In this document: positions 605 to 37,627 of the stretch, in pieces | Numbering within the stretch: the first letter of the stretch is position 1 | Layout of the letters: each line of letters begins with the position of its first letter | From: Myxococcales bacterium | GTDB lineage: Bacteria > Myxococcota_A > Polyangia > Haliangiales > Haliangiaceae | NCBI GenBank assembly: GCA_016794545.1 | Contig: JAEUJX010000275.1 | Location: forward strand, 571-64,570 | DNA length: 64,000 bases | Direction: 5' to 3' | Program-made: the position numbers and the translations under genes | Notes under the pieces: generated by a model | Told to the model about the DNA's origin: nothing | What the model saw: only the letters and a program-made list of their open reading frames with translations | The model's database searches: none

Positions 605-2419
605 GTGACGACCGTCGATCATTACAAGCCGAACCTCCGCGACACGTTCTTCCAGCTCTTCGAGGTGCTGGAGATCCAGAAGACCAGCCTCGGGAAGGGG
701 CCGTTCTCGGCGATGGACGAGGACACCGCGCGCGCGTCGCTCGAGGGCTTCCTCGAGGTGATGCAGAGCGCGTGGGCACCGGCGTTCGCGCCGGGCGACC
801 GCGAGGGGGCGGTGTTCGATGGCAAGGGCAACGTGAAGCTGCCGGCCGGCTACAAGAAGGCGCTCGACGCGTACTTCAGCGGCGGCTGGAACAAGCTCGA
901 GCTACCCGAGAGCCTCGGCGGCTACGGCGCCCCGCCGACGGTGCAGTGGTCGGCGTTCGAGCTGATGGCCGGCGCGAACCCGAGCGTCTGCTTCTACGTG
1001 CTCGGCAACGTGATGGTCCGGATCATCGATCAGTTCGGCACCGACGCGCAGAAGAAGCGCTACGTCCAGAACATGCTCGACGGCCACTGGGGCGCCACGA
1101 TGGTGCTGACCGAGCCCGGCGCGGGCAGCGACGTCGGCGCCGGCACCACGAAGGCCACGCACGTCGCCGGCGACGAGTACCACCTCGAGGGCGTCAAGCG
1201 GTTCATCACGAACGGCGACTTCGACCATCCGGCGAACATCGTGCACATGGTGCTCGCACGGCCCGAGGGCGCGGGGCCCGGCACGAAGGGGCTCTCGCTG
1301 TTCATCGTGCCGAAGTTCTGGGTCGAGGCCGACGGCTCGATCGGCGCGCGCAACGGCGCCGTCGTGACCCAGGTGGAGCACAAGATGGGCATCAAGGGCT
1401 CGGCGACATGCGAGCTCACGCTCGGCGACGGCGCGCCCTGCCGCGGCCTGCTCCTCGGCGAGGTGCACCAGGGCATCGCGCAGATGTTCCACGTCATCGA
1501 GTACGCCCGCATGGGCGTCGGCACGAAGTCGATGGCGACGCTGTCGACGGCCTACCTGAACGCGCTCGAGTACACGCGCGTGCGCAAGCAGGGCGCCGAC
1601 CTCGCGAAGCAGATGGACAAGGCCGCGCCGCGCGTCGAGATCATCCGCCACCCCGACGTGCGGCGGATGCTGATGCTCCAGAAGGCGTTCGCCGAGGGCC
1701 TGCGCGCCGTCGTGCTGTGGACGGCGAGCATCCAGGATCAGGTCGCGATCTCCGGCGGCCACGGCAACGAGAGCTCGCGCCAGCTCGACGCGCTCAACGA
1801 CCTCATGCTGCCGCTCATCAAGGGCTACGGCTCCGAGAAGGTCTACGAGCTGCTCGCGGTCTCCCTGCAGTGCTTCGGCGGCTCGGGCTACTGCGAGGAC
1901 TATCCGATCGAGCAGTACATCCGCGATCAGAAGATCGACTCGCTGTACGAGGGCACCACGCACATCCAGGCGCTCGATCTGTTCTTCCGCAAGATCGGCC
2001 GCGACCGCGGCGCGACGCTGACCGCGCTCGTCGGTCAGATCGCGAAGACGGCCGCGGGCCTGCCGGCCGAGCTCGGGGTCGAGAAGGCGGCGCTCGAGGC
2101 CGCGATCGGCGACGTGCAGGGGATCATGGGCGCGATGATGGGCAAGCTCGGCCAGAGCGTCTATCACGTCGGGTTCCAGGGGAACCGGATCCTGTTCGCG
2201 CTCGCCGAGCTCGTGATCGGCTGGCGGCTCGCGGTGAGCGCGCAGGTCGCGCACGGCAAGGTGGGCAGCGCGACCGGCGAGGACAAGGCGTTCTACCGGG
2301 GCAAGCTCGCGGCGGCGCGGTTCTACGCGAAGAACGTCCTGCCGGGCCTCGCGCTGACCCGGAAGCTGATCGAGGCCGGCGACCTCGAGCTGATGGAGCT
2401 GCCGGACGACAGCTGGTGA
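605..2419 (+). CDS. large acyl-CoA dehydrogenase (FadE-like, with C-terminal helical extension)
   Basis: 604-aa ORF with ACAD-type motifs (LPESLGGYG, TEPGAGSDVG, RFITNGD, LYEGTTHIQALD) and a long C-terminal extension. It has high GC3 and a GTG start. Confidence 0.85.
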   Translation: MTTVDHYKPNLRDTFFQLFEVLEIQKTSLGKGPFSAMDEDTARASLEGFLEVMQSAWAPAFAPGDREGAVFDGKGNVKLPAGYKKALDAYFSGGWNKLELPESLGGYGAPPTVQWSAFELMAGANPSVCFYVLGNVMVRIIDQFGTDAQKKRYVQNMLDGHWGATMVLTEPGAGSDVGAGTTKATHVAGDEYHLEGVKRFITNGDFDHPANIVHMVLARPEGAGPGTKGLSLFIVPKFWVEADGSIGARNGAVVTQVEHKMGIKGSATCELTLGDGAPCRGLLLGEVHQGIAQMFHVIEYARMGVGTKSMATLSTAYLNALEYTRVRKQGADLAKQMDKAAPRVEIIRHPDVRRMLMLQKAFAEGLRAVVLWTASIQDQVAISGGHGNESSRQLDALNDLMLPLIKGYGSEKVYELLAVSLQCFGGSGYCEDYPIEQYIRDQKIDSLYEGTTHIQALDLFFRKIGRDRGATLTALVGQIAKTAAGLPAELGVEKAALEAAIGDVQGIMGAMMGKLGQSVYHVGFQGNRILFALAELVIGWRLAVSAQVAHGKVGSATGEDKAFYRGKLAAARFYAKNVLPGLALTRKLIEAGDLELMELPDDSW

Positions 2420-4605
2420 CGACGCACAAGCGCATCTGCCCGCTGTGCGAGGCGTGCTGCGGGCTCGAGCTCGAGCTCGAGGGCCCCGCCGGCGCGGAGT
2501 CGGTCGTCGCGATCCGCGGCGACGAGACCGACGTGTTCTCGCAGGGCTACATCTGCCCGAAGGGCGCCGCGCTCGGCGAGCTGCACGCCGATCCGGATCG
2601 GCTGCGCGCGCCGCTCGTGAAGCGCGATGGCGCGTTCGTCGAGGTCACGTGGGACGAGGCGTTCGCGGAGATCGCGAGGCGCCTGCCGCCGATCCTCGGC
2701 GAGCGCGGCGGAAGCGCGGTCGCGATGATCCTCGGCAACCCGAGCGCGCACAAGGCGGGCCTGCTCCTCTACGGCGCCCGGCTGACCCGTGCGATCGGCA
2801 CGCAGAACATCTTCTCGGCCTCGACGCTCGACCAGATGCCGAAGCAGCTGTCGTCGGGCTGGATGTTCGGCCACTGGCTGTCCGTCGCGGTGCCCGACAT
2901 CGAGCGCACGCAGCTGCTCGTGATCCTCGGCGCGAACCCGATGGCCTCGAACGGCAGCATGTGGACCGTGCCCGACTTCAAGGGCAAGGCGAAGGCGCTG
3001 AAGGATCGCGGCGGCAAGATCGTCGTGATCGATCCGCGCGCGACCGAGACCGCGAAGCTCGCCGACCAGCACCTCGCGATCCGGCCGGGCGGCGACGCGT
3101 TCCTGCTGCTCGCGATCGTTCACGCGTTGTTCGCCGAGAACCTCGTGAAGCTCGGGCGCCTCGCCGAGCACGCGGCCGGCGTCGACGAGCTGCGGGCGGT
3201 CTCCGAGCCGGTCCCGCCGGAGCGCGTCGCCGCACGCTGCGGGATCGATGCGGCGGCGATCCGCGCGCTCGCGCGCGAGCTCGCGACCACCGAGCGCGCC
3301 GTGCTCTACGGCCGCATCGGCACGTGCACGCAGGAGTACGGCACGCTCGCGTCGTGGCTGGTCGATGTCGTCAACGCGCTGACCGGCCACCTCGACGAGC
3401 CGGGCGGCGCGATGTTCCCGAAGGCGGCGGCGTTCGCCGCGAACACGACGGGCGCGCCGGGGAAGGGGAAGGGCATCACCGTCGGGCGCCGGCGCAGCCG
3501 CGTCTCTGGTGCCCCCGAGGTGTTCGGCGAGTTGCCGATGACCTGCCTCGCCGAGGAGATCGAGACGCCGGGCGACGGCCAGGTGAGAGCCGCGATCGTG
3601 ATCGCGGCGAACCCTGTGCTGTCCGCACCCAACGGCCCGCGGATCGCGGCGGCGCTCGCGAACCTGGATTTCCTGGTCTCGTTCGACATCTACCTGAACG
3701 AGACGTCGCGCCTCGCGCACGTGATCCTGCCGGCGTTCAGCTCGCTCGCCGAGCCGCACTTCGACGTCGCGTTCCCGCAGCTCGCGTGCCGCAACACCGC
3801 GCGCTACAGCCCCGCGCTCGTCGCGCCGCCCGCCGGCCATCCGCCGGAGTGGCAGCAGCTGCTGCGCATGTACGCGATCGTGACCGGCAAGGGGGCGGAT
3901 GCGGACCTGATGGCGCTCGACGACGAGCTCGCCGCGGCCGACGTCGCGCGCGTCGCCGGCCCGATGGCGCCGATGATCCTCCAGCAGGTCGCGCCCGCGC
4001 GCGGGCCCGATCGGCTGCTCGACCTCGCGCTGCGCGCCGGGCCGTATCGCCTGACGCTGGCGCAGCTGCGCGAGGCACCGGCCGGCGTCGACCTCGGCGA
4101 GCTCGCACCGCGCATCCCCGAGCTGCTGCGCACGCCGTCGGGCAAGGTCGAGCTCGCGCCGCCACCGCTCGTCGCGGATGTCGCACGCGCGCTCGCGGAC
4201 CTCGATCGCCCCGCGCCGCCGCTCGTGATCATCGGGCGTCGCCACCTGCGCTCGAACAACTCGTGGATGCACAACCTGCCGACGCTCACCGCCGGCAAGT
4301 TCCGCGGCGCGCTGCTCGTGCACCCGGCCGACGCCGCGCGCACGGGCGTCACCGATGGTGGTCGCGCCCGGGTCTCGCGCGGCGGTCGCACGATCGATGT
4401 CGACGTCGCGGTCACCACCGACGTCGCGCCCGGCGTGTGCTCGCTGCCGCACGGCTGGGGGCACGATCAGCCGGGCACGCGGCTCACGGTCGCGTCGCAG
4501 CGCCCGGGCGCGAACCTGAACGCGATCCTCGATGACTCGCTCCGCGATCCACTCTCCGGCAACGCCGTGCTCGGCGGGGTCGCGGTGGAGCTCGCTCCGC
4601 TGTGA
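2416..4605 (+). CDS. molybdopterin-dependent oxidoreductase (MopB superfamily, formate-dehydrogenase-like)
   Basis: Start placed at GTG 2416, which overlaps the upstream TGA (GTGA). The N-terminus has a 4Fe-4S Cys cluster (CPLCEACCG...ICPKG), followed by the molybdopterin oxidoreductase body and a C-terminal dinucleotide-binding-like barrel. The 772-2415 part of the listed ORF is an Arg-rich shadow of the ACAD gene. Confidence 0.8.
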
Positions 4606-6640: not shown

Positions 6641-6988
6641 TCACTGCTTCTTGCCGAGCTTCGCGTAGACGTCCTTGTCGAAGCCGACCGTGACCTGCTT
6701 GCCGTCGATCAGGATCGGGCGGCGCAGGAGGTTCATGTCCTTCGCCGCGGCCGCCGCGAACTCGGCGGCGGAGGGCGGCTTGGCGGACCAGCCCTTCGCC
6801 TTCGCGATCTCGTGCCGCGTGTTGAGCACCGCGGCGACCGATCCGGCGGCGGCGACGAGCGCCTTCACCGTGGCCTCGGACAGGCCGGTCTTCGCGTAAT
6901 CGATCTCCTCGAACTCGAGCCCGCTGTCGCGCAAGGAACTCCTCGCGTTCCGGCAGCTCGTTCAGGTCTTCTTCAGGTAGAGCTTCAC
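6641..6988 (-). CDS. ArsC/Spx/YffB-family thioredoxin-fold protein with in-frame TGA at the catalytic Cys position (candidate selenoprotein)
   Basis: Listed ORFs 6962..7492(-) and 6641..6934(-) share one frame and are separated only by the TGA at 6962-6964. Read through, the product is VKLYLKKT-[TGA]-TSCRNARSSLRDSGLEFEEIDY...LNTR...RRPILIDGKQVTVGF, about 115 aa. It aligns with E. coli YffB ([20 protein letters not shown]...LNTR...KRPLL...LGF), with the TGA falling on the first Cys of CxxC. The GTG start at 6988 lies 10 nt after the upstream TAA. Confidence 0.6.
6923..6957 (-). promoter_or_regulatory. SECIS-like hairpin 3' of the in-frame UGA
   Basis: The mRNA after the UGA reads ACGAGCUGCCGGAACGCGAGGAGUUCCUUGCGCGACAGC. 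A 17-nt hairpin, GGAAC-GCGAGGA-GUUCC (6951..6935), begins 10 nt after the UGA. It can be extended by a lower stem, GCUG/CAGC. Folded by eye only. Confidence 0.35.
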
Positions 6989-6998
6989 CCGAGCGAGG

Positions 6999-8150
6999 TT
7001 ACATGAAGTTGCGCGTGTGGAGCGCGGACAGCGCGGCCGCCTGGTCGGGAGCGAAGCCGAGCCGGACGAGGCGCTGGCGGCGGCCGTCGTCCATGTCGCG
7101 CTGGAGCTCGACGACCGCAGTGTGGCCGGCGCGCAGCCGCGCGGGCTCCCAGCCGCCGGCGGCGAGCAGGAGGAGCGCGTCGAACACCTCGGCATTGAGG
7201 CCGGCGGTGTGGGCGAGCGCGGTGTGGCGGCGCTCGATCGCGGCCGCGAGGCGCTCGCGGAGGGCAGGGTCCTCCGCGACGTGGCGCTGGAGGTGCGCGA
7301 GGCCGAACGCGACGTGGCGGGCCTCGTCCTGCGCGGCGAGGCGGGCGACCTCGCGCGTGCAGAGGTCGGGGCCGTGCCGGTGCAGGAACCACAGCAGCGA
7401 GAGGAACGAGCCCTCGCCGAGGACGGAGAGCAGAAACGAGGCGATCGCGAAGTCCGGTTCGTCGAACAGCGTCGCGAGCGACGCCTGGCCACCGGCGCTC
7501 GACAGGCCGAGCACGTCGCGGCGGAGGCGCGCGCGGCGCGTGAACACCTCGACGTGGCGCGCCTCGTCGGCGGTCTGGATCGCGAGCAGCTGCATGATCT
7601 CCCGGAAGTGCGGGTGCAGCCGGCCGAGGAACCGCGCGGGCACGAGGAGCGCGGCGGTCTCGTTCTCGATCAGGTAGGTCATCACCTGCACGACCGCGTC
7701 CTCGACCTCGGCGGGGTGATCCGCGGGCGCGTCCCACGGGATCGCCGTCGCCGGATCCCACTGCGCGGCGGAGGCCTGCGCGTAGAGGCGCGCGGCCTCG
7801 TCGGCCCACACCTCGGCGCGCGTCGCGAGGGGCAGGTCGAGCGCGGGTGCGCCGCGCTCGACGAGCGCCCCGCGGGCGGCGAGGCCCCAGTGCGCGGGCG
7901 CGACGGCCTCGGGCGCGGCCGCGCGGCCCGCCCGCTCGGCGGTGCGCCAGCGATCGGGGCCGCGCACGAGCACGAACCCGCCGTCGCGCGCCGTGCACGT
8001 GTGGCCCTGCGCGCGCGCCCACGCCGGGACGTCGATCACCAGCGTCGACGCCGTGCCGCGCACGACGACCTCCGGGGCCTCGGCGAGCGCGCGCTTCACG
8101 AGGAGGTGTGCGCCCTCGTCGAGTCCGAGATCGCCGAGGTCGAGGTTCAT
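6999..8150 (-). CDS. ferritin-like diiron protein with N-terminal Cys-less TusA-like domain
   Basis: ATG at 8150 overlaps the upstream stop (ATGA). Two ExxH-type diiron motifs are present (ADEARHVEVF, QDEARHVAFG) plus ENETAAL and LGEGSF helices. The first ~70 aa resemble TusA/SirA but carry DEGA in place of CPxP. The product is 383 aa. Confidence 0.6.
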   Translation of the reverse strand: MNLDLGDLGLDEGAHLLVKRALAEAPEVVVRGTASTLVIDVPAWARAQGHTCTARDGGFVLVRGPDRWRTAERAGRAAAPEAVAPAHWGLAARGALVERGAPALDLPLATRAEVWADEAARLYAQASAAQWDPATAIPWDAPADHPAEVEDAVVQVMTYLIENETAALLVPARFLGRLHPHFREIMQLLAIQTADEARHVEVFTRRARLRRDVLGLSSAGGQASLATLFDEPDFAIASFLLSVLGEGSFLSLLWFLHRHGPDLCTREVARLAAQDEARHVAFGLAHLQRHVAEDPALRERLAAAIERRHTALAHTAGLNAEVFDALLLLAAGGWEPARLRAGHTAVVELQRDMDDGRRQRLVRLGFAPDQAAALSALHTRNFM

Positions 8151-8980
8151 GCGACCGACTTCAGCCACGGCTCGATCGTGCCGAACCGATCGATCGCGCG
8201 CTCGAGGAGCGCGTAGCCGCTGGTGCGCCCGGGCTTCCAGACCTTCAGGCCCTCCATGTCGAGCAGCGGCCGCACGCGCTCGTCGTCGTACGACATGCCG
8301 AGCAGGAGCTCGCGGAACTTCGCCGTCGCCGGCGGGCCGCCGTCGAGCACCGTGAAGTTGCAGTGGTCGTAGGGCGCGGTCTGGAGCACCACGCGCACCG
8401 CCGGCGGCACGAACAGCGCCTCGCGGATGAACGCGAGGCGGTTGCCGTCGATGATGCACGCCGCGTCGACCGTGCCGGCGAGCAGCGCCTTCACCGCGTC
8501 GCGCTCGCCGCCCACGTGATCGCCGTGCTTGCCGACCATCACCTCGTGGCGCACCACGTGACCTTCGACCCCCGCCTCCGCGAGCGCGACCAGCGGGATC
8601 AGCGTGGCCTGCGGCGAGTCGGAGGCGCCCACGCCGATCCGCTTGCCCCGGAGGTCGGCGAGCTCGCGGATCGGGCCGTCGGACCGGACGAGCACGACGC
8701 TCGTCAGATCGCAGTCGGTGTCGCGCATCGCGATCGCGGTGGCGGTACGGCCGGCCTGCTTCGCGGCGCGCTCGGCCTCGAGCCACGCGAGCGGCGAGTT
8801 CCACGCGCAGTCGATGTCACCGCGCAGGTGGGCCTCGACCTGCTTCTCGTAGTTCGAGTAGAGGACGAAGTCGAACGGGAGGCCGTGGCTGTCGAAGTAC
8901 GTCTTGAAGCCCTCCCAGATCGGGACGACCTTCGCGTCGTACGCGACGGCACCGAGGACGAATGGCTTGCTCGTCGTCAT
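8147..8980 (-). CDS. PhnD/SsuA-like periplasmic-binding-fold protein without signal peptide
   Basis: 277 aa from ATG 8980. The sequence pattern resembles phosphonate/phosphite-type substrate-binding proteins (FVLGAV...YSNYEKQVEAL..GDIDCAW, GKRIGVGASDSPQATLIP). The N-terminus has no hydrophobic leader. Confidence 0.5.
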   Translation of the reverse strand: MTTSKPFVLGAVAYDAKVVPIWEGFKTYFDSHGLPFDFVLYSNYEKQVEAHLRGDIDCAWNSPLAWLEAERAAKQAGRTATAIAMRDTDCDLTSVVLVRSDGPIRELADLRGKRIGVGASDSPQATLIPLVALAEAGVEGHVVRHEVMVGKHGDHVGGERDAVKALLAGTVDAACIIDGNRLAFIREALFVPPAVRVVLQTAPYDHCNFTVLDGGPPATAKFRELLLGMSYDDERVRPLLDMEGLKVWKPGRTSGYALLERAIDRFGTIEPWLKSVA

Positions 8981-8982
8981 GG

Positions 8983-10068
8983 CTAGAACAGCGGCAGGCC
9001 GCAGACGGCCTTCCCGATGAAGTCGTAGAGCACGTCGGTGGTCGGGCCCATCACCTGGGCGGCGCGCGCGTCGCGGAACACGCGCTCGACGCCGACCTCC
9101 TTGCGGAACGCCGCGCCGCCGCACACGCGCATCGCGGTGTCGGTGACCTCGGCGGCGGCCTCGCCGGCCGCGGCCTTGCTCTGCAGCACGCGCAGCATGG
9201 TGTCCGCGCGGTTCGCGCCCATCGCGGCGAGCGTGTCGCCGATCAGGGCCTTCGTCGCATCGGTCGCGATGCGCATGCGCGCGATGTACGCGCGCACCGT
9301 CGGCAGCTCGGCGAGCGCGTTGCCCGCGTGCTCGAACTTCGTGCCGCCCGCGTGCGCGGCCGTCCGCGTGGTCGCGGCCTCCATGAGGCCCGCCGACACC
9401 GACGCGACGAGCACGTTGAACCACGGCAGCACGGTGCCCATCATCAGGCCGAACCCGCCGCCGTCCTCGCCGAGCATCGCGCTCGCGCGGATGCGCGTCG
9501 ACTCGGCGACCACCGGCACGGAGTCATTGCCGCGCAGGCCGATGCCGTCGAACAGCGCGTCGGAGATCCGCAGGCCCGGCGCGGTGCGCGGGACGAGCCA
9601 CAGCGTGCTCGCCTCGGCGCCCGCCATCGGCCTCGACGACCACACGTACGAGTCGGCGTGGTGCGCCGACGTCACCCAGCTCTTCTTCGCGGTGAGGAGG
9701 ACGTCATCGCCGTCCTGCTTCGCGGTGCCGAGCGGCGCCCAGAAGTGGCTGCGCGATCCGGCCTCCGAGAACGCGAGGGTCGTGAGGTGCGTGCCGGCGG
9801 CGATCTGCGCCTTGACCTCCGCGGACCCGTGCTTCTCGAGCACCGCCGACGCGCAGTAGTGCATGCAGACGACCATCGCGGTCGAGCCGCACTCGCGCGC
9901 CAGGCGCTCGACGATCACATGCGCGTCGGGCAGGGACACGAAGCCGAACAGGCGGGCGGCGCGCAGGGAGTCGACGGTCTTCGTGGGGAAGGCGCCGCGA
10001 TCGACCTCGGCGGCGTTGGCCGCGGCGATGGCGGCGATGGATTCGAGCTTCTCGAGACTGACAGACAT
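8983..10068 (-). CDS. acyl-CoA dehydrogenase-fold flavoprotein
   Basis: 361 aa from ATG 10068, with GGAG 6 nt upstream. The sequence is ACAD-like in its middle and C-terminal parts (LAFSEAGSRSHFW, KSWVTSA, RVCGGAAFRKEVGVERVFRDARAAQV). The stop lies 2 nt before the next gene's start. Confidence 0.7.
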   Translation of the reverse strand: MSVSLEKLESIAAIAAANAAEVDRGAFPTKTVDSLRAARLFGFVSLPDAHVIVERLARECGSTAMVVCMHYCASAVLEKHGSAEVKAQIAAGTHLTTLAFSEAGSRSHFWAPLGTAKQDGDDVLLTAKKSWVTSAHHADSYVWSSRPMAGAEASTLWLVPRTAPGLRISDALFDGIGLRGNDSVPVVAESTRIRASAMLGEDGGGFGLMMGTVLPWFNVLVASVSAGLMEAATTRTAAHAGGTKFEHAGNALAELPTVRAYIARMRIATDATKALIGDTLAAMGANRADTMLRVLQSKAAAGEAAAEVTDTAMRVCGGAAFRKEVGVERVFRDARAAQVMGPTTDVLYDFIGKAVCGLPLF

Positions 10069-10210
10069 GGAACTCCGAGCGCGGGCGCGCCCGGAGGGGC
10101 TCACCCGACGAGGCTTGGCCCGAGTACCCCGGACCGTGGTTGAGCTCAAAGGCGGAACATGGCGCGGACCATACCGCAGGGCCGCGGCGGCGCATTCCTG
10201 GCGCGCACGT

Positions 10211-13547: not shown

Positions 13548-14228
13548 TCAGCGCGGCTCGGTCCGGCCCGGCACGAGCGCGGCCGCCAGCAGCGCCGCGA
13601 CGGTCACCGATCCCGCATGCATCACGCCCGTGTGGAGCGGGTCCGTGATGGGACAGTGAAAATGGAGCAGGAGGCCGCCGAGGCTGCCCCCGCCCGCGCC
13701 CAGGCAGGCCGCGATCCAGCGCGCGCCCGTCGGCACCGCGCCGCGCAGGTAGATCGCGCCGAGCACGACCGGCACGATCGACGTGGCCAGGCCGAGCTCG
13801 AGGCACCAGTGGCCGTGGAGGAAGCGCTCCGCGCCGAGCTGGATGCTCGACGGCCCCGACGGATGGATCAGCATCCCCATCGCGATGAACGCGATGGCCG
13901 ACGCCACCGCCGCCACCGCGGCGGTGCGGCGACGCACGATCATCGTGCCCTTCTCCGGCACGAGCGCCAGGTAGCTCGGCACGACGAAGCCGAGGAACCA
14001 CGCAAGCCCGCCGCCGACCATCCAGCCCATCGGCAGCTCGCCGGCATCGGCGCGCACCGAGAGGATCGCGAGCAGCGCCGCGGCATAGACCATCGACGAG
14101 ATGCACACGATCGCGAGCTGGCGCATCGGGCGGCGCGTCTCGACCGGGACGAGCCTGCCGAGCTCGGCCTCGAGCTCGGCGCCCATCGGCGGCGGCGTGA
14201 ACGGCGGCAGCTTCAGCTCGTCGCTCAC
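13548..14228 (-). CDS. membrane anti-sigma factor, NrsF/DUF1109-like
   Basis: 226-aa protein with about six predicted TM segments, overlapping the ECF sigma stop by 4 nt. It has His/Cys motifs (HGHWC, HFHCP). The family call is by resemblance only. Confidence 0.5.
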
Positions 14229-14758
14229 GCCCGGCCCTCCAGCTTCTTGCGCAGGGCCTCGTACCCGCGGTGCGCGCGCACCTTCATCGCGCCGACGGTG
14301 GTGCCGGCGATCGCCGCGGCCTCCGCGACGCTCTTGCCCTCGAGCTTGGTCAGGACGACCGCCTCTCGCTGCTGCTCCGGGAGCTCCGACAGGGCGTCGA
14401 GCGCGGCCGCGAGCAGCTCGGGATCCGGCCCCGGGTCGTCGGGCACGGCGGCGACATCCGGGAGGTCGTCATCGGCGACGCCGACCTTCGCGCGCTTCCC
14501 GGCCCGCACGTCGTCGAGGAACGTGCGGTGCGCGATCGCGTAGATCCAGGGCAGCGGGTCGGCCCCACGGACATAGGCGGCGCGCGCCCGATGGACCTTC
14601 AGGAAGGTCTGCTGGAGGAGGTCGTCCGCGACCGACTTGCTGCGGGCCATCTTCACGAGATACCCGTACAGGCGGGGTGCGACGGCGGCGTAGAGCTCGC
14701 GGAACGCGCTCGCATCGCCGTCGCAGTACCTCGTCATGAGCTCCCGGGGATCGGCCAT
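14225..14758 (-). CDS. ECF-type RNA polymerase sigma-70 factor
   Basis: Region 2 ([25 protein letters not shown]) and region 4 ([40 protein letters not shown]) are present. Confidence 0.85.
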
Positions 14759-14774
14759 TCCCGCCGATGCCGGG

Positions 14775-14802
14775 TATACGCCGAACCGGGGGCCCGGTTA
14801 CA
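14775..14802 (-). promoter_or_regulatory. candidate ECF-type promoter upstream of the sigma gene
   Basis: On the minus strand the sequence reads TGTAAC-N16-CGTATA, ending 16 nt before the ATG at 14758. It resembles the B. subtilis SigW-type consensus TGAAAC-N16-CGTATA. Confidence 0.3.
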
Positions 14803-14865
14803 GGGCGCGATCTCTTTGATCGCGCGGGCTTGCGTCGGGCCGTATTCCTGCCCGATAACCCGCGC

Positions 14866-15030
14866 ATGGCACCCGGTCGTCGCACGAAGCGCAAGCTGAA
14901 GAATCGCCCCAAGTTCAAGATCAAGCGCCGCCTCAAGGACCGGCGCATGAAGGCGAAGAAGAACGCGGCGCACAAGCGCGGTCTCGCGCGCAGCCGCGCC
15001 CGCCGCAAGAACCGCGGCAAGAAGCGCTAA
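14866..15030 (+). CDS. small hyper-basic protein (54 aa)
   Basis: An ATG at 14866 within listed ORF 14767..15030 gives MAPGRRTKRKLKNRPKFKIKRRLKDRRMKAKKNAAHKRGLARSRARRKNRGKKR. Codons are G/C-ending (AAG/CGC). Coding status is unproven. Confidence 0.35.
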   Translation: MAPGRRTKRKLKNRPKFKIKRRLKDRRMKAKKNAAHKRGLARSRARRKNRGKKR

Positions 15031-15052
15031 GGCGCGCAAGAGCGCTCGCCGC

Positions 15053-15694
15053 TCAGGCGAGCGACCACGCGATGAACAGCTGCGCCGCGTAGTAGGCGGG
15101 CAGGCCCCACGCCTTGTTCGCGAACGTCGCCGCGACGAACCTGTCGCGCGCGACCGCGAGGTCCGACGCGAAGAACAGCACCGCGCCGACGATCATCCGC
15201 GTGCGCGCCGGCTCCGGCAGCGCCTCGGTGCGCCACGCGGACAGCGCGAACGCGACCATCGTCGCGATCGTGAGCACGTAGAAGATGACCGGCACCTTCA
15301 TCGCGCCGAGCTTGGGCCACAGGAGCCACAGCACGACGCCGCCGGCGGCGTAGGGCGCGACCACGAGGGGCCCGGCGCCCGCGAACCACTCTCCCGCCGG
15401 CATGAGCGACGCGAACGCGGCGACGTAGCCGAGGTGGCCGATCAGGAACAGCGTGAGCCCGGCGAGGAACGCCTTGTTGCTCCGCCCGAGCAGTGCGACG
15501 TCGCCGCCAGCACCGAACACGAGCCCGACGAGCACGAGCAGCGCGTAGCGGTCGCCGTCGTAGAGCAGCGCGCCGAGCGCGACGAACGCCGCGGACGCGG
15601 TGGACTTCGCCACCATCCGCAGCGTCCGGAGGCGCGCGTACTCGGCCGCGACCAGCACCGCGCACGCCCACGCGCAGACCAGGGTGAGGATCAT
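15053..15694 (-). CDS. YhhN-family lysoplasmalogenase-like membrane protein
   Basis: 213 aa with about 8 TM segments and YhhN-like motifs (FGAGGDVAL, FLIGHLGY, LFFASDL). The start overlaps the upstream stop (ATGA at 15691-15694). Confidence 0.7.
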   Translation of the reverse strand: MILTLVCAWACAVLVAAEYARLRTLRMVAKSTASAAFVALGALLYDGDRYALLVLVGLVFGAGGDVALLGRSNKAFLAGLTLFLIGHLGYVAAFASLMPAGEWFAGAGPLVVAPYAAGGVVLWLLWPKLGAMKVPVIFYVLTIATMVAFALSAWRTEALPEPARTRMIVGAVLFFASDLAVARDRFVAATFANKAWGLPAYYAAQLFIAWSLA

Positions 15695-16959
15695 CGCGCG
15701 AGCGCCTCCACGACGAGCTCGAGCCTATCCTGGCCCCAGAACAGCTGCTCGCCGTTGACGACGAACGTCGGGACGCCGAACACGCCCGCGGCCACGGCGC
15801 GCGCGGTGGTCTCGGCGAGCCGCTCCTTGAGCGCGGGCTCCTTGGTGCGAAGGGCCCAGTCGCCCGGCAGGCCCGCGGCCTCGACGACCCCGCGGAGCAC
15901 GTCGCGATCCTCGAGGTCCTTGCCCTCGGCCCACATCGCGCGCCCGAGCAGGATCGCGAGCTTCACGCCCGCGTCGAACCCGCGGTCACTCGCCAGCAGG
16001 CACAGGCGCTGCGCGTCGACGGTGCGCTGCGGAAACTTCGCCGGGAACGACAGCGGCTCTCCCCACCAGCGCGCCCATCGAGCCATCTCGGCGAGCACGT
16101 AGCGCTGCTTGGGCCCCGGCATCGCGTGCATCGGAACGTCGACCTGTCCGATCTGCCGGAACAGCGCCCCGAGCAGGATCGGGTGGAGCCGCGGCGTCAC
16201 GCCGGTCGCGCACGCGAGCGCGGGCAGCTGCGTGAGCCCGAGATACGCGAACGGGCTCGCGACATCGACGTAGACGTCGAGCGTCGCGCCCGGCCGCGCG
16301 GGTGGCGCCTCGAGGAGCGGTCGCGGTCCGCCCGGCGGGGGACCGGCGTCGGGGTCCCAGCCGGCGAGCGCGGCGGTCACCCACTCGATCCGGTCCTGCC
16401 CCCACAGGAGCAGCGGGCCCTGGGGGCGGCGCAGCACCCACGCGGGCGCGCCGAACACGCCGAGCGCGATCGCCTCGTCGGTGCGCGCGCGGAGCTCGTC
16501 CTTGATCGCGGGATCGTCCGCGCGCTCGAGTGCAGCGGCGACCTCGGCCGCGCCGAACCCGGCTCCCTCCAGCGCGCGCGCGATCACCGCGTCCGAGGTG
16601 ATGTCCTCGGCGCGCTGCCAGTAGGCGGCGTAGATGGCGTGGATCGCGTCCGGCCAGCGGGAGTGAGGGAGGGCGAGCAGGGTCCTGAGCGCCCGCACCG
16701 TCCGCATCGGGTGCGCCGCGGGTAGCTGGAATGGCACCCCGAAGTGAGCGGCCCACCGGTGCATGTCGGCCTGGTTGTGTGCGGCTTTTTGCGGGGACAG
16801 GGTCGCCATCGGGCCGTCACCGGCGCCGATCCCCCTGAACACGCCGCCGAGGAGCATCGGCTTCCAGACGACGTCCATCCGTGACGCCAGTCTCGAGGCG
16901 AGGTAGGCGTACGGGCACGAGAAGTCGAACCAGAGCTCGAGCACTCCAGACAGGGTCAT
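15691..16959 (-). CDS. tandem DsbA-like 2-hydroxychromene-2-carboxylate isomerase domains
   Basis: 422 aa from ATG 16959. It contains two copies of the HCCA-isomerase/DsbA pattern (FDFSCPYAYL...GVFGAPAW...WGQDR and VDVASPFAYL...GVFGVPTF...WGQDR). The rest of listed ORF 15691..18672 is antisense shadow. Confidence 0.75.
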   Translation of the reverse strand: MTLSGVLELWFDFSCPYAYLASRLASRMDVVWKPMLLGGVFRGIGAGDGPMATLSPQKAAHNQADMHRWAAHFGVPFQLPAAHPMRTVRALRTLLALPHSRWPDAIHAIYAAYWQRAEDITSDAVIARALEGAGFGAAEVAAALERADDPAIKDELRARTDEAIALGVFGAPAWVLRRPQGPLLLWGQDRIEWVTAALAGWDPDAGPPPGGPRPLLEAPPARPGATLDVYVDVASPFAYLGLTQLPALACATGVTPRLHPILLGALFRQIGQVDVPMHAMPGPKQRYVLAEMARWARWWGEPLSFPAKFPQRTVDAQRLCLLASDRGFDAGVKLAILLGRAMWAEGKDLEDRDVLRGVVEAAGLPGDWALRTKEPALKERLAETTARAVAAGVFGVPTFVVNGEQLFWGQDRLELVVEALAR

Positions 16960-27100: not shown

Positions 27101-28488
27101 GCGACGCAGGCGTTGCCGACCACGTGCTGGTCGACGGCGCACAGCGTGGCATCGCACGTGGTGTCGGGGCCCGCGGCATTGTCGCCGGCGGCGTTCGTGG
27201 TACCCGCCGGGCACGCGACGCACGCGTTGCTCGCGACGCGCTGGTTCGCGGGACACAGGGTGGCGTCGCACGTGGTGTTCGCCCCCGACGCGTCGTCACC
27301 GGCGGCGTTCGTCGTTCCCGCCGGGCACGTCACGCACGCGTTCGCGACGACGTGCTGGTTCGCGGGACACAGCGTGGCATCGCACGTGGTGTTCGCCCCG
27401 GTCGCGTCGTCGCCGGCGGCGTTCGTCGAGCCGGGCGGGCAGGCGACACAGGCGTTCGCGAGGACGCGCTGGTCGGTGGCACACAGCGTGGCATCGCACG
27501 AGGTGTTCGCGCCGGAGGCGTCGTCACCGGCGGCGTTCGTCGAGCCGGGCGGGCAGGCGACGCAGGCGTTCGCGAGCACGCGTTGATCCGCCGCGCACAG
27601 CCAGGGCTCGCACGTCGTGTCCGCGCCCGAGGCGTCGTCGCCGGCGGCGTTGGTGGTGCCCGGCGGGCACGCGACGCAGGCGTTGCCGACCACCCGCTGA
27701 TCGAGCGCGCACAGGACGGCATCGCAGGTGGTGTCGGCGCCGGTCGCATCGTCGCCGGCGGCGTTCGCGGTGCCCGGCGCGCAGGCGACGCAGGCGTTCG
27801 CGACCACGCGCTGGTTCGCGGGGCACAGCGTCGGATCGCAGGTGGTGTCGGGGCCCGACGCGTTGTCGCCGGCGGCGTTCGTGGAGCCCGGCGCGCAGGC
27901 GACGCAGGCGTTCGCGACCACGCGCTGGTTCGCGGGGCACAGCGTGGGATCGCACGCGGTGTCCGCGCCGCTCGCGTCGTCACCGGCGGCATTCGTGGAG
28001 CCCGCTCCGCAGGCGACGCAGGCGTGCGCCGCGACGCGCTGGTTCAGGGCGCACAGGGTGGCGTCGCACGTGGTGTCCGTGCCGGCGGCGTCGTCACCCG
28101 CGGCATTCGTGGAGCCCGCAGGACACGCGACGCACGCGTGCGCGGCGACGCGCTGATCCGCACCACACACGGTGCCGTCGCACGTCGTGTCGGCGCCCGA
28201 GGCGTCGTCGCCGGCCGCGTTCGTCGAGCCCGGTGCGCACGCGGCGCAGGCGTGCGCGACGACGTGCTGGTCGAGTGCGCACTTCACCGCGTCGCAGCTG
28301 GTGTCGGCACCGCCGGGGTCGTCGCCGGCCGCGTTCGTGGTGCCGGCCGCGCACGGTACGCAGGCTCCCCCCTGCACGCGCTGGTCGGCGCGGCACGGCT
28401 CGAGCGGGGTGGTCCCGCCATCGTCGCCGCAGGCCGCGACCGACAAACCGAGTGACACCATCACACCCAGGACACGGCCAACGCGCAT
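24124..28488 (-). CDS. giant repeat lipoprotein: 16 Myxococcus-type Cys-rich repeats + 4 lamin-tail-domain-like modules
   Basis: Lipobox LGLSVAAC. Residues 32-525 are 13 tandem 38-aa repeats (C..NQRV.ANACVACP.G.TNAAGDDASG.DTTCD). They are followed by four ~241-aa modules, each starting (I/V)L(R/L)(L/I)(S/T)EV(A/S)P.Q...RD.(V/I)EL, and the junctions between successive modules each carry one more Cys repeat (three in all). Confidence 0.8.
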   Translation of the reverse strand: MRVGRVLGVMVSLGLSVAACGDDGGTTPLEPCRADQRVQGGACVPCAAGTTNAAGDDPGGADTSCDAVKCALDQHVVAHACAACAPGSTNAAGDDASGADTTCDGTVCGADQRVAAHACVACPAGSTNAAGDDAAGTDTTCDATLCALNQRVAAHACVACGAGSTNAAGDDASGADTACDPTLCPANQRVVANACVACAPGSTNAAGDNASGPDTTCDPTLCPANQRVVANACVACAPGTANAAGDDATGADTTCDAVLCALDQRVVGNACVACPPGTTNAAGDDASGADTTCEPWLCAADQRVLANACVACPPGSTNAAGDDASGANTSCDATLCATDQRVLANACVACPPGSTNAAGDDATGANTTCDATLCPANQHVVANACVTCPAGTTNAAGDDASGANTTCDATLCPANQRVASNACVACPAGTTNAAGDNAAGPDTTCDATLCAVDQHVVGNACVACGPGTTNTAGDDASGADTACDVILCGVNERVQLNACVACPAGESNASGDDATGPDTACAPFAILRLSEVSPNQTGGRDLVELQVLANGTLGGIAIAQDGVPLTVLPELVVNTGDLVVVHFNPPTGVTTELTTQTACADAACYVGAWDVNAGTTAITYSRRVLAVVDPYGDNQDVAAFSDLGTSPSTYPAQVQAVQTSGDWLPPSCGGAPCTDATSPSANDVSVDWRGAGTGPGNASVQRDSSIDTDTKVDWRVLPGTIGVANPGLCGLNERVDANTCVPCPTGESNAAGDAPSGPDTACDVDAVLRLTEVAPNQSGGRDFVELVALTGGTIRSFTIDQAGIPLATLPDITVSAGAIVVVHLTPGPGVTTELTSPAACTDAACYGGAWDVAGGATGITYTRHVIAVVDSYRRIQDAAAFSDLGTSPAAYAGELQDVQLAGAWQPSTCGVTLCTDASTPSANDVSADWRGAGTVPGAASVQRRSLIDTDAKADWGVVPGTLGVFNPGPCLANERVVANGCVACPAGQSNLPGDNPAGGDTTCDVSAILRISEVAPAQTSSRDLVELVVVAGGTMRDLTLREDGVVLATLPDVMVSAGQLVVVHLNPVVGATTELATQTSCADSTCYAGAWDVNGGTTGITYSRKVLSVADAVGNTQDAAAFSNFNAGNTPGAYPDELAVVQAAGQWLPFDCGGVRCDDTTTTPSANGVSVDWRGLGTAPGSASVQRGSTVDTNTKADWEVAPGTFGIFNPGPCAANEHVVANSCVACPAGQGNVAGDDPAGADTACDLIAILLLTEVAPAQTSSRDLIELVVVAGGTMRDITIREGTTLRATLPDVTVSAGQVVVVHLTPDATTTTELVTPSDCTDSTCYGGAWDVRGGAAGIASTRVTLSVFAPGGGYQDAAAFTNIIGSSMTFLGQLQTLITAGEWTPSCGATPCTDDPLSPPTANDVSVDWSTVTGGTPGSPSVQRLTSVDTDAKADWGVAAQTFGTAPP
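24127..26913. repeat. four ~725-bp coding repeats (LTD-like module + one Cys repeat)
   Basis: Protein period is 241/240/244 aa, with module starts at residues 526, 767, 1007 and 1251. The copies have diverged but align throughout. Confidence 0.75.
26914..28395. repeat. 13 tandem ~114-bp coding repeats
   Basis: DNA encoding the 38-aa Cys-rich units. The copies are strongly similar at nucleotide level, as seen in the recurring gcgttcgcgaccacgcgctggttcgcggggcacagcg-type strings. Confidence 0.85.
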
Positions 28489-35350: not shown

Positions 35351-37627
35351 TCACGGGATCGTGAGATCGGCGGGACCGGGCTCGGAAGCCGCCTGAATTC
35401 GCACCGTTGCGTCGCGCCAGGCCGGACTACGCGACATCCGATCCGCAAGCGGCGCCACGACGTGATCCTCGATCGTTCGGCGCAGCGGGCGCGCGCCGAG
35501 CTTCGGATCGTGGCCGAGGATCGCGAGGCGCGCGCGGGCCGCGGGCGACATCTCGAGCCGGAGGTTGCGCGCGACGAGGCCGGGCCGCGCCCGGAGCTTG
35601 TCGAGCTCGAGGTCGACGATGCGCTCGAGCGCAAAGGCCGGCAGCGGGCGGAATGCGAGGATCGAGTCGATGCGGCCGATCAGCTCGGGCCGGAAGAACG
35701 CGCGGATCGCGGCGCCGTGATCGACCGACGGCTCCTGCGACGCGAAGCCGGCGGGCTTCGGATCCGCGGCGCCGAGGTTCGTGGTCATGACGATGAGCGA
35801 CATGCGGAAGTCGACGAGTCGGCCGAGCGCGTCGGTGAGGCGGCCGTCGCCGACGATGCCGAGCAGCAGATCGAACGCGGCGGCATCCGCCTTCTCGATC
35901 TCGTCGAACAGCACGACCGACAGCGGCTGGCGGCGGATCCGATCGGCGAGCGACGTCCCCGACGGAGACGGCGTGATGAGGCGCGCGATCGCGGCGCCGG
36001 TGACGAGCTCGCTCATGTCGACGCGCACGAGGCGCTCGGCATCGCCGAACAGATAACGCGCGAGCTGCTTCGCGAGCTCGGTCTTGCCGACGCCGGTCGG
36101 GCCCGCGAACAGCAGCGTGCCGACGGGGCGCTGCGGATCGTCGAGGCCGGCCTTGAGCCGCGCGATCACGCGCGCCGCGACCTCGCACGCGTGGTCCTGA
36201 CCGACGACGCCCTTCGCGAGCGCGGCCGCGATCGCCTTCGTATCGAGCGCCCGCTCCGGCGACAGCAGGTCGACGGGGAGGCCGGACCACGCGCCGAACG
36301 CCTCGGTGACCTCGCCGAGCGAGAGCGGCTCCTTCTTCGCCGGCCGCGTCGCGAGGTAGTCCATGAACGCGAGCGCCTTGCCGGGAAACGCGGTGTCGCG
36401 CCGGAACGCGGCGAGGAGCTCGACCAGACGGCGCGAGGCGTCGTGCGTGACCGCGACGGGCGGGGAGAGGCGCTGGCCATACGGCTCGAGGAGCGCGATG
36501 GTCTGCGCGGACGTCGCCTCCGGCATCCGCACGACGCGCATCGCGTCGACGAGCGCGGGCGCCTTCTGGCGCGCCCTCACGAGCTCGGCCTCGTCGCACT
36601 CGGCGATCAGCGTGAGCTCGTCGGCGATCACGCCGGGCGCGAGCAGGTCCGCGATGGACGCTCCGTCGGCCGCGGGCGTCAGGATGTCGGCGAGGCGATC
36701 GACGTAGAGCAGGTCGGAGGAGTCGCTCATCTCGCCGGCGATCGCGAGACAGCGCTGCTGCCACATGCCGAGGTAGACCATGCCCGCGACGATCCGATCC
36801 GCGCTCGTCGCCCACAGCCGCGCCCGGACGCCGCCGCCGCGCCCGCGCTCGAGCAGCCCGCGCGCGAGGCGGCGCACGAACGCGGTCTTGCCGCTGCCGC
36901 GCGGCCCGACGAGCAGCAGGCTCGGCAGCTTCGGATCCTCGAGGAGCTTCGCGTGCGCGTCGAACACCGGATCGACGCCGACGGTGGCGCGCAGCCGTCC
37001 CGCACGCGCGAGGCCGACCCAGTCCTCGGCGACCTCCTCGAGCGTCGGCTTCGGATCGTCGGCGTCGTCGTTCTCGTTCTTCTGCTTGCCCGCGGCCTCG
37101 ATCGGGCTCCACTCGACGATCTCCTCGTCGACCTCTCGCCGCACGTCGTAGAGCGCCGCGGTGGCGTCGCCGACGAGCGCGGCGAACACGAGCGAGCGGA
37201 TCGTGTCGGGCACCGCACCGAGGTCCTCGGTGACGAACGAGTAATCGAACCGCGGCACGAGCACGCGGTAGAGCGGGGCGCCCTCGAGCTTCGCCGCCGC
37301 ATAGCCGAGCCGGATCGGCACCGTGGATCTGGCGATCACGTAGCCGCGCGGATCGGGACGGCCGGGATGGATCTCGACGTCGATGCGCCGCAGCTCGAGC
37401 TGCTCGCTCCACAGGTAGCGATCCGCCGCGTCGTCCTCGACGAGCAGCGCCGCTTGCGGCGCGAGGCGCTGGAGCGCGGTCTCGAGATCCTCGGCCATCG
37501 CGGCGGGCGGCGGCGTGTCGAACATCACGCGATGGCGGCGCAGCAGCACCGCCGAGACGAGGCCGCCGTGGTGGCGCGTGACGAACACGCGGAAGCTCGG
37601 CCTGGCCGTCACGGCGTACGACTCCAC
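35351..37627 (-). CDS. ClpA-like double-AAA+ ATPase paralog 3 (novel N-domain, no C-extension)
   Basis: D1 has Walker A GPRGSGKT, degenerate Walker B LLYVDRLA and the FPGKALAF small-domain motif. D2 has GPTGVGKTELA, VVLFDEIEKA and GARPLRR. The likely real start is GTG 37612, forming a GTGA overlap with the upstream stop; the listed start at 37627 is also GTG. Confidence 0.8.
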   Translation of the reverse strand: MESYAVTARPSFRVFVTRHHGGLVSAVLLRRHRVMFDTPPPAAMAEDLETALQRLAPQAALLVEDDAADRYLWSEQLELRRIDVEIHPGRPDPRGYVIARSTVPIRLGYAAAKLEGAPLYRVLVPRFDYSFVTEDLGAVPDTIRSLVFAALVGDATAALYDVRREVDEEIVEWSPIEAAGKQKNENDDADDPKPTLEEVAEDWVGLARAGRLRATVGVDPVFDAHAKLLEDPKLPSLLLVGPRGSGKTAFVRRLARGLLERGRGGGVRARLWATSADRIVAGMVYLGMWQQRCLAIAGEMSDSSDLLYVDRLADILTPAADGASIADLLAPGVIADELTLIAECDEAELVRARQKAPALVDAMRVVRMPEATSAQTIALLEPYGQRLSPPVAVTHDASRRLVELLAAFRRDTAFPGKALAFMDYLATRPAKKEPLSLGEVTEAFGAWSGLPVDLLSPERALDTKAIAAALAKGVVGQDHACEVAARVIARLKAGLDDPQRPVGTLLFAGPTGVGKTELAKQLARYLFGDAERLVRVDMSELVTGAAIARLITPSPSGTSLADRIRRQPLSVVLFDEIEKADAAAFDLLLGIVGDGRLTDALGRLVDFRMSLIVMTTNLGAADPKPAGFASQEPSVDHGAAIRAFFRPELIGRIDSILAFRPLPAFALERIVDLELDKLRARPGLVARNLRLEMSPAARARLAILGHDPKLGARPLRRTIEDHVVAPLADRMSRSPAWRDATVRIQAASEPGPADLTIP

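Follow-up and report, generated by a model that had tools for sequence, protein, structure and literature searches.

How does a bacterial gene come to carry a stop codon exactly where its protein family keeps the first residue of its redox motif, and is that codon read as a stop at all? The question is raised by a locus on the minus strand of a 64,000-nucleotide stretch of DNA from a Myxococcales bacterium, referred to here as the window. Positions 6641-6988 of the window form a single frame of 115 codons with an internal TGA at 6962-6964. Read on the minus strand from 6988 to 6641, the frame gives VKLYLKKT*TSCRNARSSLRDSGLEFEEIDY...LNTRHEIAK...NLLRRPILIDGKQVTVGFDKDVYAKLGKKQ*; it begins VKLYLKKT*TSCRNAR, and its C-terminal end is GKKQ*. 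A mechanical list of open reading frames (ORFs) presents it instead as a 97-aa ORF that begins at a TTG (6641-6934) and a seemingly unrelated frame upstream, which the TGA closes. The initial annotation had proposed that the two are one frame split by the TGA, that the TGA falls on the first Cys of an N-terminal CxxC motif (giving UxxC), and that the gene encodes a selenoprotein. The single-frame translation agrees with the first of these claims, and the others are taken up below with the evidence that bears on them. The features of the locus are collected in Table 1.

Table 1. Features of the predicted selenoprotein gene (window positions) and the evidence for each
Feature	Position	Strand	Evidence
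Full coding sequence of the predicted 115-residue ArsC/Spx-fold selenoprotein, M/V-KLYLKKT-U-TSC-RNA...GKKQ	6641..6988	-	Single frame; Pfam ArsC; collinear orthologs
GTG start, 8 codons 5' of the UGA	6986..6988	-	Homologous ATG/GTG in relatives
TAA of the upstream gene, 10 nt before the GTG start	6999-7001	-	
UGA, predicted selenocysteine, residue 9, N-terminal position of UxxC	6962..6964	-	TGA/Cys pattern; homolog and Spx alignment
Cys12 codon TGC, presumed resolving cysteine of UxxC	6953..6955	-	Conservation in Sec-type genes
Predicted SECIS-type hairpin, 15 nt after the UGA, within the N-A-R-S-S-L-R codons	6930..6947	-	Covariation
TTG, gene callers' start of the 97-aa ORF; Leu codon in the hairpin 3' arm	6932..6934	-	
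True stop codon TGA, no hairpin context	6641..6643	-	

The window has a G+C content of 72%. Ordinary genes in it end most often in TGA, so a genome-wide reassignment of TGA is ruled out. Only one other in-frame TGA in the window matched the pattern (27584-27586, plus strand), and it was set aside as part of a shadow frame antisense to a 1,440-aa gene, g22.

The role of the codon becomes visible when the gene is compared with its relatives. The DNA of 80 species-level genomes was examined, mostly from Myxococcota and mostly labelled Kofleriaceae, Haliangiales, Nannocystaceae, Polyangiaceae or plain Myxococcales/Deltaproteobacteria; some are metagenome-assembled genomes (MAGs) labelled Acidobacteriota or Planctomycetota, and a few of the labels are implausible. 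Alignment with Cys-containing orthologs had been suggested at the outset as a check on the selenoprotein reading. The codon at the UGA position is TGA in 64/80 of these loci (the Sec-type genes) and TGC or TGT in 16/80 (the Cys-type genes), and TAA or TAG occurs in 0/80. At their genuine ends, these 64 Sec-type genes use a mixture of stops: 34 TGA, 26 TAG and 4 TAA. A TGA-only pattern at a codon aligned with Cys is far beyond chance. Full-length homologs read K-[SK]-T-C-T-S-C-R-[DN]-A, and the TGA of the window takes the place of the first Cys of their CxxC; it also aligns with Cys10 of Spx, so that U9-T-S-C12 corresponds to C10-T-S-C13 of that protein. This places the codon where the initial annotation had put it. 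The second cysteine, Cys12, is kept in 63/64 of the Sec-type genes, with TGC and TGT interchanging. On a midpoint-rooted NJ tree, most loci carry selenocysteine (Sec), which is also the state reconstructed at the root, and there are at least five switches between Sec and Cys.

One could suspect a more trivial origin. TGA is one substitution away from TGC or TGT, and the window comes from a metagenome-assembled genome; a pseudogene, or an error of sequencing or assembly at an ordinary Cys codon, would look similar in a single sequence. However, the gene is base-for-base identical in six independent metagenome assemblies, which rules out a sequencing error, and the TGA is common to 64 species-level genomes and to the nearest relatives of the window gene. 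Constraint at the protein level is also seen on both sides of the codon, with dN/dS below 1. Such an origin is effectively refuted, and there is hardly any chance left that it accounts for the TGA.

The protein that results from reading through the codon belongs to a recognizable family. When the joined product was searched with Cys substituted for the internal stop, it matched the Pfam ArsC family (PF03960) at 48.9 bits, against a cut-off of 24. Among curated models, TIGR01617 (Spx/MgsR) ranks first with 63.9 bits, below its cut-off of 75.05. Other curated models score lower and also stay under their cut-offs: 48.5 bits against 123 for Spx proper (NF002459), 33.8 against 106 for true ArsC (TIGR00014), 33.1 against 121 for the YffB-type reductase model and 38.5 against 85 for NF041106, the “ArsC family (seleno)protein.” Nine diverse Sec-type relatives behave alike, with 27-40 bits for NF041106, and L067 is the only one of them to pass the cut-off of TIGR01617 (78.5 bits). 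The closest solved structures by sequence are those of Spx (3L78, E = 9e-11, and 1Z3E; B. subtilis/S. mutans), a redox-switch regulator that binds the C-terminal domain of the RNA polymerase alpha subunit (alpha-CTD). The motif C-T-S-C-R-x-A-R is identical in Spx and lies at the same position, with TGA for the first Cys in the window, and the R-R-P-I and T-R motifs are shared as well.

For the structure, the AlphaFold model of P0009 was used, the closest full-length Cys homolog, which is 68% identical and has the same N-terminus. This model (pLDDT 95.9) places the Cys/Sec position in the loop between strand beta1 (residues 2-5) and helix alpha1 (10-21). In Foldseek, its best superposition is with Spx (TM 0.83), followed by YffB and ArsC, with E. 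coli ArsC a weaker structural match (TM 0.70). Together with the PF03960 match, these fold matches bear out the ArsC/Spx/YffB-family motifs that had been noticed in the bare sequence. Orthologs are collinear with the window protein across residues 1-115.

Databases show the gene in another form. A protein search returned 591 homologs, and the best 120 clusters were examined. Full-length proteins make up 28 of these 120 (110-128 aa, 90-99% coverage), and the other 92 are truncated calls of 93-108 aa that cover 78-84% of the query. The truncated calls go by the names “hypothetical protein” or “arsenate reductase-like”; one of them, from a MAG labelled “Myxococcales bacterium,” is 99% identical. 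Among the best 120 clusters, P0001, which is the database counterpart of the gene and carries the locus tag JNL83_14515, and about 90 others start at or near the TTG at 6932-6934. That automated annotation would truncate the gene had been predicted, and this is what most of the clusters show.

Could the truncated call be the real gene? All of the database entries call it so, which would make the 97-aa ORF from the TTG at 6934 the coding sequence and the 27 codons upstream an untranslated leader. Its product, however, would be an odd protein: judged from the structural model of the homolog, with beta1 at residues 2-5 and CxxC upstream of the TTG, it has neither the first strand nor any of the redox motif, as the initial annotation had supposed. 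The Cys-type homologs are translated straight through the region, variation upstream of the TTG is synonymous only, and the TTG itself is conserved because it lies within the 3' arm of the hairpin described below. It is therefore scarcely believable that translation is confined to the shorter ORF.

The codons 5' of the UGA evolve instead like translated sequence. An ATG (59 genes) or GTG (5 genes) lies 8-14 codons upstream of the TGA in 64/64 Sec-type genes. The Lys at codon -3 is written AAG or AAA and the Thr at codon -1 ACG, ACT or ACC, with variation almost only at the third position. In the three nearest relatives with fetched DNA, L087-L089, which come from separate assemblies and have 88% amino acid identity, everything is kept: the GTG, the TGA, the hairpin and a peptide VKLYLKKT that is identical despite synonymous changes in its codons. 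Over the whole gene, third-position differences prevail among the nearest relatives (e.g., 19 versus 6 and 5). Against more distant relatives, dN/dS is 0.35-0.52, a moderately low range that fits constraint and is not decisive, and these values are probably inflated by GC3 bias. No Shine-Dalgarno enrichment was seen at the proposed start, with 13/64 Sec-type genes compared to a background of 14%. With 10 nt between the stop of the upstream gene and this start, the two genes may be translationally coupled.

If the UGA is to be decoded as Sec, a signal for this would be expected in the mRNA. The initial annotation had drawn a hairpin with a 5-bp stem (GGAAC/GUUCC) and a 7-nt loop, beginning 10 nt after the UGA. 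This hairpin can indeed be drawn in the window, but it is not conserved: when 54 distinct Sec-type sequences were checked, its second pair was broken in 50 of the 54 relatives, and the nearest relatives have CGA or CGT for the CGG of the window, which destroys it. It was dropped in favor of a 7-bp stem with an AGUU tetraloop, CGCGAGG-AGUU-CCUUGCG, with which it overlaps and is mutually exclusive. The redrawn hairpin has its 5' arm at 6941-6947, its tetraloop at 6937-6940 and its 3' arm at 6930-6936, all on the minus strand, and the distance from the UGA is corrected accordingly to the 15 nt given in the table.

The evidence for the redrawn stem comes mainly from covariation. Standard pairs fill 92.3% of its cells, and compensatory double changes are found at 3/7 pairs in 22 cells (C-G to U-A, A-U to C-G and G-C to A-U). 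None of 500 shuffles did as well (0/500), and registers slid along the alignment reached at most 71% paired. RNAalifold, with no structure supplied, returns the same 6930-6947 hairpin. In isolation, the hairpin has a folding energy of -10.9 kcal/mol, makes up 95% of the ensemble and has a z-score of -3.8. The RNA folding proposed for this region has thus yielded a conserved hairpin that is both ensemble-dominant and covarying. Within the stem and loop, third codon positions (codons +8 and +9) vary unusually little, and the residues “ARSSLR” are common to the Sec-type genes and vary in the Cys-type genes. These two features point to a constraint on the RNA that is added to that on the protein. 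The TGA that the relatives share comes with a covarying stem and with constraint on both flanks.

Two broader measures gave nothing. Sec-type and Cys-type genes cannot be told apart by the folding energy of the segment (-13.1 versus -12.3 kcal/mol, p = 0.37), because all of the sequences are GC-rich. What sets the Sec-type genes apart is a shared hairpin at a fixed position, with G-U in its loop. A search of Rfam, at gathering and at permissive thresholds, returned no match to a SECIS family, only a chance match to flpD (E = 3.8).

The natural standard for such an element is the SECIS of E. coli fdhF. The fdhF sequence used in the comparison agrees fully (100%) with fdhF in over 5,400 E. coli genomes. 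In fdhF, the UGA is followed by 11 nt and then by GGUUGCA-GGUC-UGCACC. The window element resembles it in being a hairpin that lies within the coding region shortly 3' of the UGA and carries G-U at positions 2-3 of its tetraloop. It differs in its spacer, which is 14 nt against 11 nt and thus one codon longer, and in its loop, AGUU against GGUC. The stem in the window consists of seven perfect pairs without a bulged U, unlike that of fdhF; the acidobacterial versions of the hairpin carry a one-base bulge. Nannocystaceae relatives come closer still, since their CGUACGA-GGUC-UCGUACG has the GGUC tetraloop of fdhF, likewise closed by A-U. The G and U stand at the loop positions reported to be critical in published work on fdhF and SelB. 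By this analogy, the hairpin at 6930-6947 is presumed to recruit SelB.

Insertion of Sec also depends on dedicated machinery, and here the window itself has little to offer. No tRNA was found in the 64 kb by ARAGORN, and selA, selB and selD account for 0 of the 47 window genes annotated with Pfam. A rough tblastn search of 890 kb with E. coli SelD and SelB probes returned nothing, although a sample of that size carries no weight for a genome of several Mb. Downstream structures can stimulate read-through of stop codons, and one could take these searches to mean that the UGA is read through without Sec, either by near-cognate suppression or by insertion of Cys or Trp under stimulation by the hairpin, to give CxxC or WxxC. 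Such a mechanism would not account for a UGA that sits exactly where relatives encode Cys, nor for a hairpin that looks like a SECIS in its G-U loop, its fdhF spacing plus one codon and the GGUC of its relatives. The interchanges of Sec and Cys on the tree are the classic pattern of selenoproteins. Moreover, at locus L040, from a related Myxococcales MAG, another UxxC candidate lies roughly 2 kb away from the ArsC-like gene. This is a SelL-related AhpC/TSA_2 protein with the motif HFG-U-LFC, and it belongs to a family with known Sec members (118.6 bits for NF040769, cut-off 120). Its UGA is followed after 18 nt by a hairpin of the same type, with 7 bp and an AGUU loop. Read-through without Sec is thus very improbable. 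Within the Myxococcota, Anaeromyxobacter is a documented user of Sec, with 11 selenoproteins (PMC1794560).

The selenoprotein reading that was first proposed can now draw on the pairing of Sec with Cys, a codon that is TGA and no other stop, conservation on both sides of it, start codons upstream and a covarying stem-loop. It is highly likely that the locus is an intact selenoprotein gene in which the downstream hairpin directs the decoding of the UGA as Sec, with a product of the ArsC/Spx fold that is probably an oxidoreductase. The UGA is conserved and paired with Cys, sequence on both sides of it is coding, the hairpin covaries, and the fold is that of a known family. For SelB binding, Sec insertion in the source organism, the catalytic cycle and the substrate, we infer the following course of events. 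Translation would begin at the GTG at 6988. At the UGA, the ribosome would put in selenocysteine rather than terminate, because the mRNA just downstream folds into the AGUU hairpin and this would recruit SelB-GTP-Sec-tRNA(Sec), as the fdhF SECIS does in E. coli. The product would be a protein of 115 residues with a thioredoxin-like ArsC/Spx fold and U9-T-S-C12 at the junction of beta1 and alpha1. The selenolate of U9 would then attack an oxidized substrate or an oxidant, a selenenylsulfide would form between U9 and C12, and a thioredoxin- or glutaredoxin-type system would reduce the pair again.

The likeness to Spx suggests another use for the same gene and the same Sec decoding. In this case, the protein would be a redox-switch regulator that binds RNA polymerase, and the U9-C12 selenenylsulfide would be its sensor rather than a step of catalysis. 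TIGR01617 is always the best curated model, and one relative passes its cut-off; the nearest solved structures are of Spx, alone and with the alpha-CTD of RNA polymerase; the C-T-S-C-R-x-A-R motif is the same as in the Spx redox switch; and the gene stands alone, without a conserved enzymatic partner. On the other hand, the window protein scores under TIGR01617 and far under Spx itself. It ends at residue 115, aligned to residues 3-110 of the 131 of Spx, and is missing the roughly 20-residue C-terminal tail that serves regulated proteolysis; the Spx helix in contact with the alpha-CTD, ...TEDGTDEII..., is not conserved and reads ...AAAGSVAAVL... instead. Sec in place of Cys10 is a further difference; a UxxC in which Sec is the attacking residue is typically a feature of catalysts. 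The phylum differs too, and Spx-type regulators are not known to have been characterized outside the Firmicutes. A role of this kind is therefore unlikely, and thiol-disulfide-type oxidoreductase chemistry is the most likely function. The full claim, that Myxococcota and Acidobacteriota have a Sec-containing Spx-type regulator whose binding to RNA polymerase is controlled by a U9-C12 selenenylsulfide switch, is quite improbable. If it were true, selenoproteins would for the first time include a transcription factor, and Spx-type regulation would extend beyond the Firmicutes. No relevant paper came up in a full-text literature search that combined Spx with selenocysteine.

The surroundings of the gene do not settle its function either. 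Leaving aside an antisense artefact, no neighbor is conserved in more than 9/80 loci, and no ars genes were seen near the locus. In the window and its close relatives, the gene follows a tight trio that encodes an acyl-CoA dehydrogenase-like protein, a PhnD/NMT1-like binding protein and a ferritin-like di-iron protein. This di-iron/ACAD cluster is linked to the gene only in close relatives, and the neighborhood was dropped as a functional clue. In Cys-type Haliangiales loci, the same three-gene cluster is found downstream of the gene instead. The association is an interesting one, though shallow.

Selenoproteins of the ArsC type have been reported before. A Sec-containing “arsenate reductase” (ArsC 1) with a UxxS motif was described from the Sargasso Sea in 2005 (PMC1088965), and “ArsC-like” or “distant ArsC homolog” selenoproteins from Desulfotalea and Desulfuromonas in 2006 (PMC1794560). 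With these, the window protein shares the ArsC superfamily and Sec at the position of the N-terminal catalytic Cys; it has UxxC where the ArsC (TIGR00014) type has UxxS. The GOS marine metagenome (2008) added two ArsC families, one of which, “Arsenate reductase 2,” was assigned to cd03032 and has UxxC, with 42 Sec and 238 Cys sequences (PMC2398784). The domain cd03032 is the ArsC_Spx subfamily (PMC8755942). Compared by description, this family and that of the window have in common an ArsC superfamily placement nearest Spx, UxxC and many Cys homologs, and both have been predicted by bioinformatics only. For the window protein, TIGR01617, its best NCBIfam match, is the nearest proxy for cd03032. 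A UxxC selenoprotein of the Spx subfamily is thus an already known kind, since the GOS family and the earlier ArsC-type selenoproteins have been published. The GOS family is marine, whereas the clade of the window consists mainly of Myxococcota and Acidobacteriota MAGs and has Sec in the majority (64/80).

NCBIfam has a model for proteins of this sort, NF041106, the “ArsC family (seleno)protein” or “arsenate reductase-like protein, UxxC” (PMC13188914, PMC9312934). The ArsC fold, UxxC and a length of about 107-115 residues are shared with it. By the NCBI criterion, the window protein nevertheless falls into a different subfamily, and because its scores stay below the cut-off of the model, PGAP-type annotation does not rescue the gene. 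What is new here is a large non-marine clade in which Sec is dominant, with a predicted SECIS backed by covariation, that current models and annotation miss.

The finding adds a large clade, mostly from soil and freshwater, to a kind of selenoprotein whose earlier descriptions came from marine metagenomes and from a small number of anaerobic Deltaproteobacteria. In at least 64 species-level genomes, and in about three-quarters of the best 120 database clusters, the gene is kept as a fragment of 93-108 aa without its active site. NF041106 does not reach this clade; with a new model that takes in the present SECIS, hundreds of entries would be put right. The predicted SECIS itself is a clean, covariation-supported example for lineages that have no curated RNA model. 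It also raises a question that can be tested: whether a Spx-like fold that bears Sec is an enzyme or a redox sensor.

The selenoprotein gene of the window, an ArsC-like gene, has three closely packed same-strand genes directly upstream (6999-10104, reverse strand), which encode an acyl-CoA dehydrogenase-like protein, a PhnD/NMT1-like binding protein and a ferritin-like di-iron protein. The linkage of this trio to the ArsC-like gene is kept in about 8-11 close relatives. It persists in inverted order in three Haliangiales loci (L054, L059 and L062), where the selenocysteine is replaced by cysteine (Cys-type).

Selenocysteine is common in the molybdopterin oxidoreductase class. The window encodes one such enzyme, and its reading frame is unbroken, with no in-frame TGA in the gene. 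Further along, the reverse-strand genes for an ECF sigma factor, an NrsF-type anti-sigma factor, a YhhN-family protein and a DSBA-like protein (13548-16944) form a possible envelope redox-stress module, and the synteny of this group is kept in several relatives.

Two other regions of the window deserve mention. Three consecutive large paralogous AAA+ genes, encoding proteins of 758, 1091 and 1127 aa, overlap at their ends, and each combines AAA_16, AAA_2 and ClpB_D2-small domains; a CAAX-protease-like gene comes next. There is also an unusual fusion of 1,102 aa that joins an MFS transporter (residues 31-376) to a C-terminal cyclic-nucleotide-binding domain (residues 996-1068).

Features in the window and at related loci
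Feature	Location	Strand	Remark
Molybdopterin oxidoreductase	window 2416-4605	+	729 aa; N-terminal Fe4S4 domain
Ferritin-like di-iron protein	window 6999-8150	-	weak AurF match (21.8 bits, below cut-off)
PhnD/NMT1-like binding protein	window 8147-8980	-	
Acyl-CoA dehydrogenase-like	window 8983-10104	-	
NrsF-type anti-sigma factor	window 13548-14228	-	
ECF sigma factor	window 14225-14758	-	
YhhN-family membrane protein	window 15053-15694	-	
DSBA-like protein	window 15691-16944	-	417 aa; two DSBA-like stretches
AAA+ paralogues (three)	window 35351-44264	-	
CAAX-protease-like	window 44261-45010		
MFS/cyclic-nucleotide-binding fusion	window 47630-50938	+	
Candidate selenoprotein	L040:2583-3116	-	in-frame UGA at 2982-2984
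U-T-T-A member	L063:1511-1561		labelled Alphaproteobacteria
C-T-T-A member	L066:1693-1743		

At L040, a locus from a related Myxococcales MAG, a selenocysteine-type ArsC-like gene lies about 2 kb away from a second selenoprotein candidate. The candidate is of the AhpC/TSA_2 type, a "SelL-related redox protein" that scores 118.6 bits with NF040769 against a cut-off of 120. The motif around its UGA reads ...VRHFG-U-LFC-REQ..., and 18 nt 3' of the UGA comes a hairpin with a 7-bp stem, GUGGUGC-AGUU-GCACCGC, which folds at -15.4 kcal/mol (z = -4.2). This is the sole locus where the candidate is seen.

For four loci with a member of this family (L058, L073, L078 and L079), the taxon in the record title looks implausible given the sequence. 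The titles assign these MAGs to "Bifidobacterium breve," "Klebsiella sp.," "Heliomicrobium sp." and "Heliobacteriaceae," and their genes group with uncultured-proteobacterium, Nannocystaceae-like or acidobacterial versions; the assemblies are probably mis-binned or mislabelled.

The resolving cysteine is absent from two members of the family, the U-T-T-A protein of L063, whose hairpin differs (8 bp, CGGGC loop), and the C-T-T-A protein of L066. A single selenocysteine or cysteine would imply a monothiol mechanism for these two proteins.
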